64,000 nt of DNA from an uncultured Thalassospiraceae bacterium. GTDB lineage: Bacteria > Pseudomonadota > Alphaproteobacteria > Rhodospirillales > JABHCV01. The notes beneath the pieces are model-generated. The model made no database searches and was not told where the DNA came from. It saw nothing but the letters and a program-made list of their open reading frames with translations. The position numbers were made by a program, and so were the translations under genes. Positions 1,184 to 37,950 of this stretch are shown here, in pieces. The DNA is taken from contig CAYFOJ010000013.1 of the NCBI GenBank assembly GCA_964344645.1, forward strand, positions 61 through 64,060, given 5' to 3'. Each line of letters starts with the position of its first letter. Within the stretch, counting starts at the first letter, position 1.

Positions 1184-1349
1184 CCTCAATAGCAAAGGGC
1201 CGCCGAATGCTCGGCGGCCCCTTAAATGCCTCAACCTGTCAAACTCGCCATCATTTTTTTTATTGGCTGGTCGGGGACTTTAACCATGCCGCCGGGCCTT
1301 GGCAAGCGGGAAATTAAACCAGACGACACGAACACCTGATTTTATTGAC

Positions 1350-1413: not shown

Positions 1414-2025
1414 ATGTTTGAAACCTTGAGCCTCACCGAAGCCGCCGTTGTCACGGGCCTGAAAGTAAAAGAAATCAATAAAGCCATCGACAACAAGGTC
1501 ATCCGTATTTCGAGGAAGCGGGTGACGACTGGAACACGGCAGGCTCGCCGGGTGCCCATGCAGGAACTTGTCGGGCTCCAGTTGGAAGAAAATTTATCTA
1601 CGTGGGTATCCCTGAACGCCCGAAAAAAGGTGATCCGTAAGGTCATTGCGGAGCGCCTCACCACAGACTTTAGCCCCAGTGACTCTCTGGTCATCCGTAT
1701 CGGTTCCGCTCGTGACCGCCTGGCTTCCGGTCTTAGGAAATTACGGCACGCTAGAAAAATGATTGAGACATCCCCTGAAATCATGGATGGAGAACCCATC
1801 ATTAAGGGAACTCGAATTCCCGCCGTTCTTATCTCCGAAATGCTGGAAGGGGGCGCTTCCGTCGAGGACATTCTGAAAGGATATCCCAATCTGTCTCGAG
1901 AACAAGTCGAACTCGCCGTGATTTACACCACCGCATATCCCCGTAGGGGGCGCCCGCCCAAGAGGTCGTGGCATAAACATGATGCCGTAAAGAAGACCCG
2001 CATTCCGTTATCCGAAATAGAATGA
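1414..2025 (+). CDS. DUF433-domain antitoxin with N-terminal putative HTH (VapB45-like)
   Basis: C-terminal SPEIMDGEPIIKGTRIP....EML..G.S.E.IL..YP.L is the DUF433 signature. ATGA overlap with the toxin. Confidence 0.85.
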   Translation: MFETLSLTEAAVVTGLKVKEINKAIDNKVIRISRKRVTTGTRQARRVPMQELVGLQLEENLSTWVSLNARKKVIRKVIAERLTTDFSPSDSLVIRIGSARDRLASGLRKLRHARKMIETSPEIMDGEPIIKGTRIPAVLISEMLEGGASVEDILKGYPNLSREQVELAVIYTTAYPRRGRPPKRSWHKHDAVKKTRIPLSEIE

Positions 2026-2405
2026 AATTTCTCGTCGACGAATGCCTTCACACTTCTCTGGTGGAATTGCTAAACGATGCGGGATTTGAAGCCCACCATG
2101 TCGTGCGTCTCGGCATGCAGGGTTTCAAGGATCATGAAGTGATGAAGCGTGTTCAGGAAGATGAATTTGTATTCGTCACGAACAATGCATCTGATTTTCG
2201 TGACCTGCATTCTCGGGAAAATTTACATCCTGGCCTCATCATCATCGTCCCGAACGTTAAACCTGTAACTCAGCAAGCGCTTTGCATGGCCGGTTTACGG
2301 CACATCGGAACCAGACTTGATCTGATCAACAAGGTCATTGAGATCAGATTGGACGATGGTGACATCGTGATCGGCGAATATGATCACCCCCGAATAGAGA
2401 TATGA
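2022..2405 (+). CDS. DUF5615 PIN-like toxin (VapC45/Mut7-C-like)
   Basis: MKFLVDECL...G....HV.......D..V......E..FVTNN.SDF...HPGLI pattern; 127 aa, directly downstream of the DUF433 gene. Confidence 0.85.
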   Translation: MKFLVDECLHTSLVELLNDAGFEAHHVVRLGMQGFKDHEVMKRVQEDEFVFVTNNASDFRDLHSRENLHPGLIIIVPNVKPVTQQALCMAGLRHIGTRLDLINKVIEIRLDDGDIVIGEYDHPRIEI

Positions 2406-2421
2406 CAACTTCCGCCCCCCC

Positions 2422-2450
2422 AAAAAAAAAGCCGCCCCGGGTGGGGCGGC
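2422..2450 (-). terminator. Rho-independent terminator
   Basis: Perfect 8-bp stem GCCGCCCC/GGGGCGGC (2431-2450) with a 4-nt loop; A9 at 2422-2430 gives U9 on the minus strand. Confidence 0.85.
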
Positions 2451-2520
2451 GAGTTTAACAGGGAGGTGTCGGGGCGAAGGATCTGGCGGCGCATGGGCCG
2501 CGAGCACATCTCCACCCGAC
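2422..2520 (-). ncRNA. candidate trans-acting sRNA (~100 nt); architecture resembles the suhB/MmgR (alpha-r8) type
   Basis: Lies in a convergent intergenic gap. 5' hairpin (GUCGGG...CCCGAC), single-stranded ACCUCCCUGUUAAACUC linker, GC hairpin plus U9. Upstream -10-like GCTATCCT and a CtrA box. Confidence 0.6.
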
Positions 2521-2543
2521 GATAAAGGATAGCAAGCTTAACC

Positions 2544-2558
2544 TTAACGTAGGATTAA
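2544..2558. promoter_or_regulatory. CtrA binding site TTAA-N7-TTAA
   Basis: TTAA cgtagga TTAAC is an exact consensus match, with an extra TTAA at 2538-2541. cckA in the same window supports an intact CtrA pathway. Confidence 0.7.
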
Positions 2559-2575: not shown

Positions 2576-2758
2576 TCATGACTTGAAAACGCTTTCCGCG
2601 CCGCTTCGGGCCTCCTGCTTGAGGGCGATGGCCCGGCGTGCGCGATCGATTTCCATCTCCAGCTCCTGGATGTACTCCCCCAGTGCCTCGATGGACATGA
2701 CCTCCAGGTCTTTTTGTTCGGCGGTCTTTTTTACCGGCTCCAAATCGTCCGTATCCAT
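2576..2758 (-). CDS. DUF1192 family small coiled-coil protein
   Basis: DL..MSIEAL.EYI..LE.EI.R....I..K...R.GAESVFK pattern; usual position divergent from the quinone oxidoreductase. Confidence 0.85.
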   Translation of the reverse strand: MDTDDLEPVKKTAEQKDLEVMSIEALGEYIQELEMEIDRARRAIALKQEARSGAESVFKS

Positions 2759-2839: not shown

Positions 2840-3829
2840 ATGAGCCAATCCCTGCCAGAAACCATGACCTGCGTTGAAATCGCCGACGGCGCCCTGGTCA
2901 CGGCGACCCGCCCCCTGCCCCGCCCGCAAGCCGGTGAAGTGCTGGTCGAGGTGGCCGCCGCCGGGGTCAACCGGCCCGACGTCCTGCAGCGGCAAGGGGC
3001 CTATCCGCCGCCGCCGGGGGCCTCGGACATCCCCGGCCTGGAAATCGCCGGCACGGTTTGCGCGCTGGGCGAGGGCGTCACGGACTGGGCCCTGGGAGAC
3101 AAGGTCCTGGCCCTGGTCACCGGTGGCGGCTATGCGGAATACTGCACCGCGCCGGCCCCCCAGTGCCTGCCCGTCCCCTCGACCCTGGAAATGGACGAGG
3201 CGGCGGCCGTGCCGGAAACCTTCTTCACCGTCTGGTCCAACGTGTTTGACCGGGCCGCCCTGCAGCCGGGGGAAACCCTGCTCATCCACGGCGGTTCCAG
3301 CGGCATCGGCACGACCGCCATTCAGATGGCCCACGCCCTCGGCTCGCCGGTCATCGTCACCGCCGGCAGCGAGGAAAAATGCGGCGCCTGCGAGGTCCTG
3401 GGCGCGGACCGGTCCGTCAACTACCGGGAAGAGGACTTCGTCGCCGCGGTCAAGGAATTCACCGACGGACGCGGGGCCGACGTGGTCCTCGACATGGTCG
3501 GCGGCGATTACGTCGGGCGCAACCTGAAGGCCATGGCCGCCGACGGCAGGCTGGTCAACATCGCCTTCCTCAAGGGCAGCAAGGTGGAGGTCGACCTGAT
3601 GGCGATGATGCTGAGGCGGCTGACCCTGACCGGCTCCACGCTCCGCGCCCGCTCTGTCGATTTCAAGGCCGCCATCGCCGCCAAGCTGAAAGAGCGCATC
3701 TGGCCCCTGATCGAGGAGGAGGAAATCACCCCCTTCATCCACGCCACCTTCACCCTGGAGGAAGCGGCCCAGGCCCACGAACTGATGGAAAGCTCGGAAC
3801 ATATCGGCAAGATCGTCCTGCTGACCTGA
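2840..3829 (+). CDS. NAD(P)H:quinone oxidoreductase, PIG3/zeta-crystallin family
   Basis: GVNRPD..QRQG.YPPPPGASDIPGLE; IHGGSSGIGT; H.GKIVL. Confidence 0.93.
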   Translation: MSQSLPETMTCVEIADGALVTATRPLPRPQAGEVLVEVAAAGVNRPDVLQRQGAYPPPPGASDIPGLEIAGTVCALGEGVTDWALGDKVLALVTGGGYAEYCTAPAPQCLPVPSTLEMDEAAAVPETFFTVWSNVFDRAALQPGETLLIHGGSSGIGTTAIQMAHALGSPVIVTAGSEEKCGACEVLGADRSVNYREEDFVAAVKEFTDGRGADVVLDMVGGDYVGRNLKAMAADGRLVNIAFLKGSKVEVDLMAMMLRRLTLTGSTLRARSVDFKAAIAAKLKERIWPLIEEEEITPFIHATFTLEEAAQAHELMESSEHIGKIVLLT

Positions 3830-3932: not shown

Positions 3933-4697
3933 ATGACGCATCCGCTGATGCCCAAAGCCACGGCCGTATGGCTGGTTGAAAACACCGCTCTTTCCTTCGA
4001 GCAGATCGCCGATTTTTGCGGCTTGCATTCCCTCGAAGTGCAGGCCATCGCCGACGATGAAGTCGCCATCGGCATGCAGGGCCTGGACCCCGTCGCCGCC
4101 GGCGAAGTGACCATGGAGGAAATCGAGCGCTGCCAGGCGGACCCGGGCGCGCGCCTCAACCCGGCCGCCGAAAGGACCCCGGTGCCGAAGAAGAAGGGCG
4201 CACGCTACACGCCGGTTTCCAAGCGTCAGGACCGCCCCGACGCCATCGCCTGGTTGCTCAAGAACTATCCCGAGATGAGCGACGCGCAGATTTCCAAGCT
4301 GATCGGCACCACCAAGCCGACCATCAATTCCATCCGCGACCGCAGCCACTGGAACGCGCCCAACATCAAGGCGCAGAACCCGGTCGGCCTGGGCCTGTGC
4401 TCGGCCAACGACCTAGAAAAGGCGGTCGCCGTGGCCCGCGCCCGCGCTGGCACCGTCCACGCCCCCAACCGGGGCCCGAAGGAAGACGAAGCGGCGCCCG
4501 AGGTGGCGGAGCCGACGCCGGAATCGAACCCGGAGCCGACCGTCGAATCCGTGTTCAAGGATCAGTTGCCGGCGCCGGAAAACGAAACCCTGGCGATTAC
4601 GGAAAACACCGACTCGACGCCCATTGCCATGCCCTCCCCCGACGACGGTCAGTCCGACCCCATCGCCATGCCGGGGCCGGACCAAGACGAGAACTGA
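3933..4697 (+). CDS. trcR: DUF1013 protein, TrcR-like RNA-polymerase-associated cell-cycle regulator
   Basis: PLMPKATAVWLVENTALSFEQIADFCGLH.LEV..IAD and RYTPVSKRQDRPDAI.WL motifs; acidic low-complexity tail. Confidence 0.85.
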   Translation: MTHPLMPKATAVWLVENTALSFEQIADFCGLHSLEVQAIADDEVAIGMQGLDPVAAGEVTMEEIERCQADPGARLNPAAERTPVPKKKGARYTPVSKRQDRPDAIAWLLKNYPEMSDAQISKLIGTTKPTINSIRDRSHWNAPNIKAQNPVGLGLCSANDLEKAVAVARARAGTVHAPNRGPKEDEAAPEVAEPTPESNPEPTVESVFKDQLPAPENETLAITENTDSTPIAMPSPDDGQSDPIAMPGPDQDEN

Positions 4698-36083: not shown

Positions 36084-36159
36084 TTTCCTCTCCATGCTTG
36101 CCCGAACCATATAAGACTGGATAGAAAGGAGGGCAAGGATAACAGGGAGGGTTGGAAAA

Positions 36160-37950
36160 ATGACCGCACGCACCGCCGAAACATGGCCCAATTTGGCCAC
36201 CATGTTCTTCGAACAAGCCGCCTTGAAGGGCGACGCTCCGTTTCTCTGGGCCAAGGAAGGTGGCGCCTACACGTCACGCAGTTGGAACGACGCGTCCCGG
36301 CAGGTGACGGCGCTGGCGCAGGGCCTGAGGGGCCTGGGGGTCGAGCCCGGCGACCGGGTCCTGCTGGTTTCGGAAAACCGGCCCGAATGGCTGATCGCCG
36401 ATGTCGCCATCATGGCCGCCGGGGGCATCACCGTCCCGGCCTATGTCACCAACACGGAAGCCGACCACCGCTACCTGATCGAAAACAGCGGCGCCAAGGC
36501 GGCCATCGTTTCCCGCGCCAAGCTGGCCGAGCGGGTCCTGCCGGCGGCGCTGAAGACCGGCGGCCTGGAAGACATCATCGTCATCGAAATGCCGGACATC
36601 GACCAGCATCTCGGCGTCAACCTGCACCTGTGGGACGACATCCTGCAAGCGGGGGAATCCGGCGGCGGCGACATCATCAAGGAAGCCGAAGGCCTGAAAC
36701 GGGACGCCACCGCCTGCATCATCTACACCTCGGGCACCGGCGGCGCACCCAAGGGGGTGATGCTGCATCACGGGGCCATCCTGCACAACTGCGTCGGCGC
36801 CCGCGACGCCCTGGCCGAGTTGGGCCTGGGGGACGAAGTGTTCCTGTCCTTCCTGCCCCTGTCCCATTCCTACGAGCACACGGCGGGACAGTTTTTCCCG
36901 ATTTCCATCGGCGCGCAGATCTACTACTCGGAGGCCGACACCCTGGCCACCAACATGCTGGAGGCCCGCCCGACCATCATGACCGCCGTTCCCAGACTCT
37001 ACGAGACCTTCCATTCGCGGATTTCCCGGGGCATCAAGAAACAGGGCGGCCTGAAGGAAAAGATGTTCGAGAAGACCGTCGCCCTGGGCAGCAAGAAAAT
37101 CGAGACCGGCAAGCTGGGAGTCCTCGAAGGCATCCTCAACGCCATCCTCGGCGTTCTCGTCCGCAAGAAGGTTCAGGGACGCTTCGGCGGCCGGTTGAAG
37201 GCCCTGGTTTCGGGCGGCGCCCCGCTCAACCCCGAGATCGGCATGTACTTCATGTCCCTGGGCCTGCGCATCCTGCAAGGCTACGGCCTGACGGAATCGG
37301 CACCGGTGATTTGCGTTAACCGACCCTCGCAGATCAAAATCGATACCGTCGGCCCGCCGCTGACCTCGACGGAAGTGAAAATCGCCGACGACGGGGAAAT
37401 CCTGACCCGGGGCGAACTGGTCATGCAGGGTTACTGGAAAAACGAGGAAGCCACCGCCGAATGCATCCGCGACGGCTGGCTGCATACGGGCGACATCGGC
37501 CATCTGGACGATCAGGGGCGCCTTAAGATCACCGACCGCAAGAAGGACATCATCGTCAATTCCGGCGGCGACAACATCGCCCCGCAAAAGGTCGAGGGCA
37601 TCCTCACCCTGGCCCCGGAAATCGCCCAGGCCATGGTCTACGGCGACAAGCGCCCGCATCTGGTGGCGGTCATCGTCCCCGACGTGGAATGGCTCGAACA
37701 GTGGGCCAAGGACAACGGCAAGGAATACGACCTGCCGGCCCTAGCCGGGGACGAGGATTGCCTCAAGGCCCTGTCGCAAATTGTCGAACAGGTCAACGCC
37801 GGCGTTTCCAATATCGAGAAGGTGCGCCGGTTCGTCATCGCCGAGGAAGCCTTCACCATCGACAACGCCCTGATGACCCCGTCCATGAAGATCCGCCGCC
37901 ATAAGATTTTCGAAATCTACGGCGAACGGCTTATCGCGCTTTACGGCTAA
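36160..37950 (+). CDS. long-chain fatty acid-CoA ligase (AMP-dependent synthetase)
   Basis: IYTSGTGGAPKGV, QGYGLTES, LHTGDIG and ITDRKKDII..SGG.N motifs. Confidence 0.9.
   Translation: MTARTAETWPNLATMFFEQAALKGDAPFLWAKEGGAYTSRSWNDASRQVTALAQGLRGLGVEPGDRVLLVSENRPEWLIADVAIMAAGGITVPAYVTNTEADHRYLIENSGAKAAIVSRAKLAERVLPAALKTGGLEDIIVIEMPDIDQHLGVNLHLWDDILQAGESGGGDIIKEAEGLKRDATACIIYTSGTGGAPKGVMLHHGAILHNCVGARDALAELGLGDEVFLSFLPLSHSYEHTAGQFFPISIGAQIYYSEADTLATNMLEARPTIMTAVPRLYETFHSRISRGIKKQGGLKEKMFEKTVALGSKKIETGKLGVLEGILNAILGVLVRKKVQGRFGGRLKALVSGGAPLNPEIGMYFMSLGLRILQGYGLTESAPVICVNRPSQIKIDTVGPPLTSTEVKIADDGEILTRGELVMQGYWKNEEATAECIRDGWLHTGDIGHLDDQGRLKITDRKKDIIVNSGGDNIAPQKVEGILTLAPEIAQAMVYGDKRPHLVAVIVPDVEWLEQWAKDNGKEYDLPALAGDEDCLKALSQIVEQVNAGVSNIEKVRRFVIAEEAFTIDNALMTPSMKIRRHKIFEIYGERLIALYG

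Follow-up and report, generated by a model that had tools for sequence, protein, structure and literature searches.

Sequence comparison identifies a small RNA gene with a CtrA-type promoter box as a divergent orthologue of BjrC1505

Judged by its conservation in relatives, the element on the minus strand of the gap between the convergent DUF1192 and DUF5615/PIN_10 genes is a real small regulatory RNA (sRNA) gene (Table 1). By the same comparative evidence, the RNA is a divergent orthologue of BjrC1505 (Rfam RF02356) and not the first member of a new family, its 5' domain having diverged so far that the Rfam model no longer detects the RNA. Based on these data, a simple model would suggest that the element is probably a complete gene, extending from a promoter box to a U tract, for a trans-acting sRNA that CtrA would activate and that would silence the mRNAs of solute-binding proteins. 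Throughout, the window refers to the whole 64-kb stretch of DNA that was analysed. The plus-strand flank of the gap is formed by a DUF433 / DUF5615-PIN_10 gene pair, and the minus strand of the gap contains only two ORFs, of 43 and 70 aa, both of which run through the terminator, in line with the sequence-only reading that had found no plausible protein gene there.

Table 1. Features of the sRNA locus and its neighbourhood in the window
Feature	Positions	Strand	Description
DUF5615/PIN_10 gene	2022-2405	+	Faces the DUF1192 gene across the convergent gap
sRNA gene	2558-2422	-	Includes promoter box to U tract
Rho-independent terminator	2422-2450	-	8-bp G+C stem 2450-2431, U9 2430-2422
Single-stranded seed/linker	2451-2467	-	ACCUCCCUGUUAAACUC; unpaired in minimum-energy and centroid folds
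5' hairpin domain	2468-2520	-	Predicted start near 2520, the first paired base
-10 element	2526-2531	-	TATCCT (TAnnnT); 12 nt downstream of the box
Full CtrA-type box	2544-2558	-	TTAA-N7-TTAA; overlaps the -35 position
DUF1192 gene	2576-2758	-	Pfam PF06698, 58.6 bits; directly upstream of the box, same strand
Quinone oxidoreductase gene	2840-3829		Between DUF1192 and trcR in this genome
trcR	3933-4697	+	Pfam TrcR/PF06242; divergent from DUF1192

The modular organization of the predicted RNA, described in the sequence-only reading as a 5' hairpin from position 2520 followed by a linker, an 8-bp terminator and nine U residues, was reproduced in full by the sequence and its fold. The base of the hairpin is formed by GUCGGG (2520-2515) pairing with CCCGAC (2473-2468), the anti-Shine-Dalgarno motif CCUCCC occupies positions 2466-2461 within the linker ACCUCCCUGUUAAACUC, and a terminator scan returned GCCGCCCC/ACCC/GGGGCGGC at 2450-2431, followed by T9. 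In the fold of positions 2520-2424, a linker of 17 unpaired nt separates the 5' hairpin from the terminator; the free energy is -47.5 kcal/mol (z = -4.63), a value that none of 200 shuffled sequences attained. From these features we infer an RNA of about 97 nt that starts near 2520. When a downstream run of seven G residues is included in the fold, it pairs with the seed; since the run lies beyond the U tract, this pairing is possible only in a read-through RNA.

Despite differing sequences and a hairpin length that ranges from about 26 to about 55 nt, 92% of 84 distinct homologues have a structured 5' domain (z < -2; mean z over the set, -3.4); in the closest subgroup, the basal helix of this domain exhibits compensatory changes. 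In the linker, CCUCCCUGU shows no variation among about 90 non-redundant homologues, and an alignment of 42 homologues has CCTCCCTGT, AAC and T as its invariant columns. Conservation of the CCUCCC linker in relatives had been set in advance as a test of the sequence-only reading, and the outcome is the opposite of a loss.

The seed and terminator are widespread in the order. In a BLAST comparison with 60 relatives, many genomes of the order matched the last 50 nt, which comprise both modules, at 80-97% identity, often 100-250 nt downstream of a DUF1192 match. When one genome per species was scanned for the exact pattern, 44 stretches were recovered, nearly all of them from metagenome-assembled genomes labelled Rhodospirillales, Thalassospiraceae or Rhodospirillaceae, which places the window in an uncultured member of this group. 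A covariance model of the seed and terminator (R2) was used with a manually assigned terminator structure, which replaced an RNAalifold fold that paired the seed with a terminator arm. R2 matched 193 of 301 genomes of the order, representing 67 of 111 genera. In the genome under study it found five loci, of which the window copy scores 73 bits and the other four, which are paralogues, 40-55 bits. The exact arrangement TTAA-N7-TTAA-N50-80-CCTCCCTGT is present in 129 of the 301 genomes and 50 of the 111 genera, nearly always once in each, and a reversed control pattern had no match in the 301 genomes. Preservation of this arrangement in relatives is far beyond chance. On these figures the sRNA is distributed over about 40% or more of Rhodospirillales genomes and has been overlooked by Rfam.

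To assess the association of the box with the RNA, loci were selected by seed and terminator only, without regard to the box. Of 57 loci in a first set, 50 had the full box, located 66-104 nt upstream of CCUCCC; the two DUF1192-linked loci of this set without a full box (L016 and L026) have, by eye, one-mismatch boxes at the corresponding place. A second, independent set was drawn from the covariance-model matches and contained the box in 35 of 57 loci. These comprise all 31 copies that lie downstream of a DUF1192 gene and four further copies in truncated contexts or beside trcR and an oxidoreductase gene, while the full box was found in none of the 22 remaining loci, which are paralogues sharing the seed. 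About 16 of these 22, grouped by eye as 'class B' paralogues, have a different 5' hairpin, ACGUCUCCCAGACGU, and a GCCGGnCC terminator, and many class B loci carry an upstream palindrome, GATGTTGCAnnGCAACATC. The box is thus kept in orthologous promoters and lacking in paralogues. Synteny from DUF1192 to the sRNA is kept across the order Rhodospirillales as well as in canonical RF02356 loci. In most homologous loci, TrcR is encoded on the opposite strand adjoining DUF1192 and the sRNA, so that the trcR linkage pointed out in the sequence-only reading is upheld, with the quinone oxidoreductase gene lying between in this genome.

The box reads TTAA-TCCTACG-TTAA on the minus strand (2558-2544), exactly where it had been reported from the sequence, and the -10-like GCTATCCT at 2533-2526 is likewise present, with TATCCT at 2531-2526. 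No other full TTAA-N7-TTAA exists in the 64-kb window, for which 0.05 occurrences are expected. The 3.63-Mb genome contains ten, compared to about five expected from base composition; among the neighbours of the other nine there are no classical flagellar or division genes, clpX being the sole familiar one. In 90 non-redundant loci aligned on the box, a TAnnnT element follows after 11-12 nt in 74 (82%); it starts at an offset of 11 nt in 58 loci, of 12 nt in 15, and of both 11 and 13 nt in one. The same alignment reveals no conservation of the sequence upstream of the box. The distance from the box to the start of the hairpin is constant across hairpin-length classes, and the distance from the box to the seed is bimodal, with modes of about 70 and about 90 nt that correspond to short and long 5' hairpins. 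Fixed spacing between box, -10 element and hairpin start constitutes a promoter signature, in which the box takes the place of the -35 element and transcription would start at the base of the hairpin. The centre of the box lies about 31 nt upstream of this predicted start, as the sequence-only reading had placed it, and the spacing is kept in homologues.

The host encodes the corresponding regulator. A CtrA orthologue (G000:C10:96763-97452) is 70% identical over 230 aa to Caulobacter CtrA, and CtrA is present in 39 of 41 relatives at an identity of at least 75%. In Magnetospirillum and Rhodospirillum centenum, ctrA is dispensable. Judged by eye, many close relatives have kept ATGGTTAA, which is complementary to the TTAACCAT half-site, in the region upstream of ctrA, and the CtrA recognition motif therefore appears unchanged in this order. 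Together, these observations strongly imply, at the level of sequence, that the sRNA promoter is under CtrA control.

The direction of that control has to be considered separately. The box could mark an independent sRNA gene and yet act negatively, with CtrA occluding the promoter or another TTAA-recognising factor binding there, in which case the RNA would accumulate when CtrA is inactive. The box does overlap the polymerase-binding region; a box over the -35 position can repress as well as activate, and CtrA represses some of the promoters that it overlaps in Caulobacter. However, no TTGACA-like -35 hexamer is present at the sRNA promoter, so that the promoter looks activator-dependent, and CtrA-activated promoters such as those of fliQ and ccrM have their box centred in this way, near -31 to -33. 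We therefore regard negative control as unlikely and favour activation by CtrA.

The position of the gene raises a second question, namely whether the TTAA repeats belong to a promoter at all. The box starts 17 nt past the DUF1192 stop codon, and a terminator scan found no terminator for the DUF1192 mRNA other than the one belonging to the sRNA. The sRNA sequence is thus also the 3' end of the DUF1192 mRNA, read-through from the DUF1192 gene probably yields the same RNA 3' end as well, and the RNA could stem partly or wholly from such read-through. In the extreme case, the element would be nothing more than the 3' UTR of the DUF1192 mRNA with its terminator, from which the sRNA would be released by processing, as reported for SorX in Rhodobacter, and the TTAA repeats would serve, for example, as a CtrA roadblock or as a site modulating read-through. 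The nearly universal linkage of DUF1192 and the sRNA fits such an origin, as does the fact that SorX, itself derived from a 3' UTR and processed, is the best Rfam match in the window (26.2 bits). Several features of the comparative data argue against it. The TAnnnT element at its fixed distance from the box and the constant spacing from box to hairpin start are those of a promoter; the sequence upstream of the box is unconserved; many genomes have the sRNA 340-650 nt from the DUF1192 stop codon with its own box kept; and one box-bearing copy (L149) has no adjacent DUF1192 gene. A purely 3'-UTR-derived element is accordingly improbable, while an origin by processing is plausible for part of the RNA pool. 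An independent gene with its own CtrA-activated promoter is the reading that we retain.

The relationship to known families was examined with Rfam models. BjrC1505 is an alphaproteobacterial sRNA first described from Bradyrhizobium japonicum. To our knowledge, it has been represented for more than 10 years by an Rfam entry and Northern support in one or two species, and we know of no regulator or function. In the window, no family reached its Rfam gathering threshold, and the sub-threshold alignments obtained with permissive settings run through the seed and terminator. RF02356 scores 17.2 bits at 2422-2548, below its threshold of 50, and has no match in this genome at E <= 0.001. The link between the window RNA and the family is provided by intermediates. 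When R2 was run across the class, it retrieved homologues with the box from further alphaproteobacterial orders, the majority linked to DUF1192. Three of these (L145, L148 and L166) score 46-53 bits with R2 and, among the three, 59.2, 57.4 and 51.5 bits with RF02356 (threshold 50); all have the box and DUF1192 synteny, and trcR lies alongside in L145 and L148.

Canonical RF02356 loci share the same layout. A DUF1192-like ORF lies just upstream in seven of nine above-threshold loci examined, and all five upstream ORFs tested against Pfam are PF06698 (50.8-72.3 bits). The loci found with RF02356, of which 12 of the 30 counted are above threshold, contain the full box in 13 of 25 examined; several of those without it, including the three best-scoring ones, read TTAA-N7-TTAG by eye. 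Like BjrC1505, the window RNA follows a DUF1192 gene encoded on the same strand, usually with trcR nearby, and its seed is preceded at a distance of about 90 nt by a TTAA-N7-TTAA/TTAG box. The core seed UUUGACGCCUCCCUGUU of BjrC1505 is followed directly by the terminator, and the window reads CCCGACACCUCCCUGUUAAACUC and terminator. The two differ in the 5' hairpin domain, whose sequence and shape are not the same and which in some lineages is half as long. The common seed, box and synteny, together with intermediates that are matched by both models, make the window RNA a divergent BjrC1505 orthologue. The element is a lineage variant of a known, functionally blank sRNA family, not a new kind of element.

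The composition of the Rfam model accounts for its limited reach. The RF02356 consensus contains the box aUUuACggccuAUUaac, which corresponds to TTNA-N7-TTAAC, then the seed UGUUUgACgCCUCCCuGUuA and then the terminator, and about one third of the model consists of promoter DNA and lineage-specific hairpins. The promoter is folded into helices, and the alignments contain many non-canonical pairs. Modelling promoter DNA as RNA helices results in poor sensitivity. In a search of the class, RF02356 was above threshold in 21 of 401 genomes, and it had no match in 14 control genomes that included Caulobacter vibrioides.

Other sRNAs resemble the window RNA in part. SorX and SorY of Rhodobacter sphaeroides share a seed core, ACCUCCCUGUU, followed by the terminator, but neither has a CtrA box or DUF1192 synteny; both depend on RpoHI/HII stress promoters, and the targets of their repression are transporter components (potA and takP). 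The SorX model (RF02784; threshold 46.6) aligns with the window only over seed and terminator, and SorY (RF02651) reaches 18 bits against a threshold of 111. The class B paralogues, which share the seed, score 38-45 bits on the SorX model and are nearer to it than the window copy is. Membership in the suhB/MmgR family (RF00519, the alpha-r8 family), suggested in the sequence-only reading, was not borne out in Rfam, with 20 bits against a threshold of 41. suhB/MmgR and the AbcR sRNAs do have an unpaired anti-Shine-Dalgarno of the CCUCCC type between a 5' hairpin and the terminator, but differ from the window RNA in their promoters and synteny. Their regulons are rich in ABC-transporter binding proteins.

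A target search was carried out to determine which mRNAs the exposed seed might recognize. The seed complement, AACAGGGAGG, is enriched at the ribosome-binding sites of periplasmic solute-binding protein genes. Of 80 sRNA-bearing genomes, 65 contain the pattern AACAGGGAGG-N3-10-ATG, whose matches outnumber those of a reversed control about 20-fold. Signal-peptide starts were found in 23 of 38 distinct genes behind the motif, compared to about 16% of the genome's other Shine-Dalgarno-bearing genes (odds ratio 8.3, p = 3e-9, with a crude signal-peptide rule and a sample that was partly hand-picked). Nine of ten tested genes downstream of the motif match solute-binding Pfam families of ABC or TRAP systems, and the matches in the genome under study include SBP_bac_8, DctP and Peripla_BP_6 proteins. 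The best-supported target class would hence be the mRNAs of periplasmic solute-binding proteins of ABC, TRAP and TTT transporters, as inferred from motif enrichment. The targets of SorX, SorY and AbcR1/2 belong to the same class. It is important to note that the seed is common to sibling sRNAs and is therefore not assignable to the window copy alone.

Genome-wide duplex energies are barely separable from a shuffled-seed background in this genome of 63% G+C, which makes target ranking within a single genome unreliable. The best duplex, with the mRNA of an acyl-CoA synthetase (36160-37950; -29.9 kcal/mol), is unconserved even within the genus. A gene for a PotF-like binding protein has a 12-nt perfect match here, but most relatives lack the gene, and the two that carry it have a degraded match. 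Acetolactate synthase, a published prediction for the family, exhibits no complementarity at the ilvI translation-initiation region. Among the candidates tested (acyl-CoA synthetase, the PotF-like protein, ctrA, trcR, DUF1192 and ilvI), none was individually conserved as a target.

The candidates ctrA, trcR and DUF1192 bear on another alternative, in which the RNA would mainly regulate the cell-cycle circuit, acting on ctrA, gcrA or the neighbouring trcR and DUF1192 genes instead of transporter mRNAs. CcnA offers a precedent: it is a CtrA-activated ncRNA of Caulobacter crescentus (PMC8959179), 182 nt long and located in the replication origin, with a CCCC loop that acts on the 5' UTRs of ctrA and gcrA (PMC8959179). 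The conserved trcR linkage is compatible with such a role, and the ctrA translation-initiation region reads GAGUUUGAGGGAAG in this genome, partly complementary to AAACUC...CCCUC. The ctrA complementarity, however, is limited to the genus and has an unremarkable energy (-17.7 kcal/mol), and the initiation regions of trcR and DUF1192 have no conserved extended complementarity in more than 60 loci each. While the window RNA would work like CcnA in being a CtrA-activated ncRNA, its locus adjoins DUF1192 and trcR and not an origin. From the comparisons for ctrA, trcR and DUF1192, we consider a role centred on the cell-cycle circuit quite improbable, and silencing of solute-binding-protein mRNAs remains the preferred reading.

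Based on these results, the following model can be proposed. Most likely, phosphorylated CtrA would bind the box in the -35 region and recruit RNA polymerase, so that the RNA would be made when CtrA is active, be it in predivisional or motile cells or in any other condition that switches on CckA-ChpT-CtrA in this organism. The transcript would start at the base of a protective 5' hairpin and expose an unpaired seed of 17-24 nt, of the type ..GAC(A/G)CCUCCCUGUUAAACUC.., between hairpin and terminator. A terminator with a U tail, as found here, is typical of sRNAs bound by Hfq; the genome has an hfq gene, and the RNA may be Hfq-dependent. By pairing with extended Shine-Dalgarno sequences such as AACAGGGAGG, the unpaired CCUCCCUGUU would block translation initiation. 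At least four sibling sRNAs in the genome have the same seed and other promoters, and the copy with the CtrA box would consequently feed one particular signal into a shared target set.

Published work on the family touches these points in part. A Northern band has been reported for BjrC1505 in Methylorubrum extorquens (bioRxiv 10.1101/2022.01.24.477521), where it is called a trans-acting sRNA with acetolactate synthase as its predicted target and CtrA is unmentioned (bioRxiv 10.1101/2022.01.24.477521). In the searchable literature, we found no mention of CtrA control of BjrC1505, and searches that combined DUF1192 with sRNA, TrcR with CtrA, and CtrA with anti-Shine-Dalgarno returned nothing on this RNA. 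Within that literature, the family-wide CtrA box, the linkage to DUF1192 and trcR, the wide distribution in Rhodospirillales, the candidate transporter regulon and the coverage of promoter DNA by RF02356 appear to be new. The promoter content of RF02356 suggests that the family should be rebuilt.

More generally, the comparison assigns to BjrC1505 a candidate regulator, CtrA, as well as a conserved location at the DUF1192-trcR locus and a class of candidate targets. CtrA regulons have so far been defined almost entirely for protein-coding genes, and a CtrA motif scan in S. meliloti looked upstream of ORFs only (PMC3616915). It is possible, though we advance it tentatively, that the family as a whole represents a conserved post-transcriptional output of CtrA across several alphaproteobacterial orders, hard-wired at the DUF1192-trcR locus as a counterpart of CcnA outside the Caulobacterales, which would silence the synthesis of periplasmic solute-binding proteins in CtrA-active (motile or predivisional) cells while siblings add other signals to the same regulon. 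If true, a conserved CtrA-driven sRNA would constitute a post-transcriptional layer that links the cell cycle or motility to nutrient uptake.

The seed of the window sRNA, its single-stranded anti-Shine-Dalgarno linker, is shared with RNA genes that lack the CtrA box. Four paralogous sRNAs, all encoded in the organism's own genome outside the window, have no CtrA box, but each has the CCUCCCUGU..ACU seed together with a terminator. Related loci are L107, L113-L117, L135-L136, L146, L151, and L153. A widespread group of seed-sharing paralogues is here termed class B. Class B sRNAs, which are found across many alphaproteobacterial orders, have ACGUCUCCCAGACGU as the 5' hairpin and GCCGGnCC as the terminator, and score 38-45 bits against the SorX model, slightly below its threshold of 46.6. 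Many members retain an upstream palindrome, GATGTTGCAnnGCAACATC, presumably a site for some other regulator.

The box-bearing sRNA is itself present in two copies in some genomes (G002, G071, and G301), and in G002 each of the two copies has a separate DUF1192 gene. As seen in two loci (L145 and L166), positions 1-44 of the Rfam BjrC1505 model RF02356 contain the TTAA-N7-TTAAC promoter box, which the model renders as helices containing numerous non-canonical pairs. Treating promoter DNA as RNA structure in this way is probably the reason why the model misses the Rhodospirillales orthologues.

Location of features (G, genome; C, contig; L, locus from a relative; G000, own genome)
Feature	Location	Strand
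Paralogous sRNA	G000:C16:2232-2290	+
Paralogous sRNA	G000:C16:3436-3492	+
Paralogous sRNA	G000:C6:93601-93658	+
Paralogous sRNA	G000:C14:49094-49148	+
Paired box-bearing copies	G002:C190 and G002:C95	
Paired box-bearing copies	G071:C3 and G071:C113	
Paired box-bearing copies	G301: L149 and L166	
RF02356 with promoter box	L145:1499-1646	
RF02356 with promoter box	L166:1501-1637	
BjrC68 match	window 1187-1263	-
DUF433 gene	window 1414-2025	+
DUF5615/PIN_10 gene	window 2022-2405	+
G7 run	window 2415-2421	-
GTCTAGTATGTTG	window ~2795-2815	-
TAACAGGGAGG	window 36141-36162	+
AMP-binding acyl-CoA synthetase gene	window 36160-37950	+
TTAACAATTATTAAC and ATGGTTAA	G000:C10, ~96700-96762	

Directly 3' of the U9 tract lies a G7 run that, in a computed fold of the read-through RNA, can pair with CCUCCCUG of the seed; since it is not found in the displayed sequences of relatives, it is probably incidental. 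Convergent on the terminator are the DUF433 and DUF5615/PIN_10 genes, which overlap by 4 nt in the layout of a toxin-antitoxin-like pair. On the other flank, GTCTAGTATGTTG recurs in many relatives, 35-50 nt before the start codon of the DUF1192 gene, and is probably the -10 region of the DUF1192 promoter or a regulator site. Separately, a sub-threshold Rfam BjrC68 match (24 bits; threshold, 39) overlaps the hairpin GGGCCGCCG...CGGCGGCCC in the 5'-terminal part of a thioesterase-like ORF and is probably a mere hairpin or terminator.

An AMP-binding acyl-CoA synthetase gene has the ribosome-binding site TAACAGGGAGG, which forms the genome's best predicted duplex with the seed through 11 nt of perfect complementarity; orthologues of this gene have no seed match, even within the genus.

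Upstream of ctrA itself lie TTAACAATTATTAAC, a TTAA-N6-TTAA site, and the half-site ATGGTTAA. By eye, many close relatives (among loci L198-L227) also have this half-site upstream of their ctrA genes, a recurrence that suggests ctrA autoregulation.
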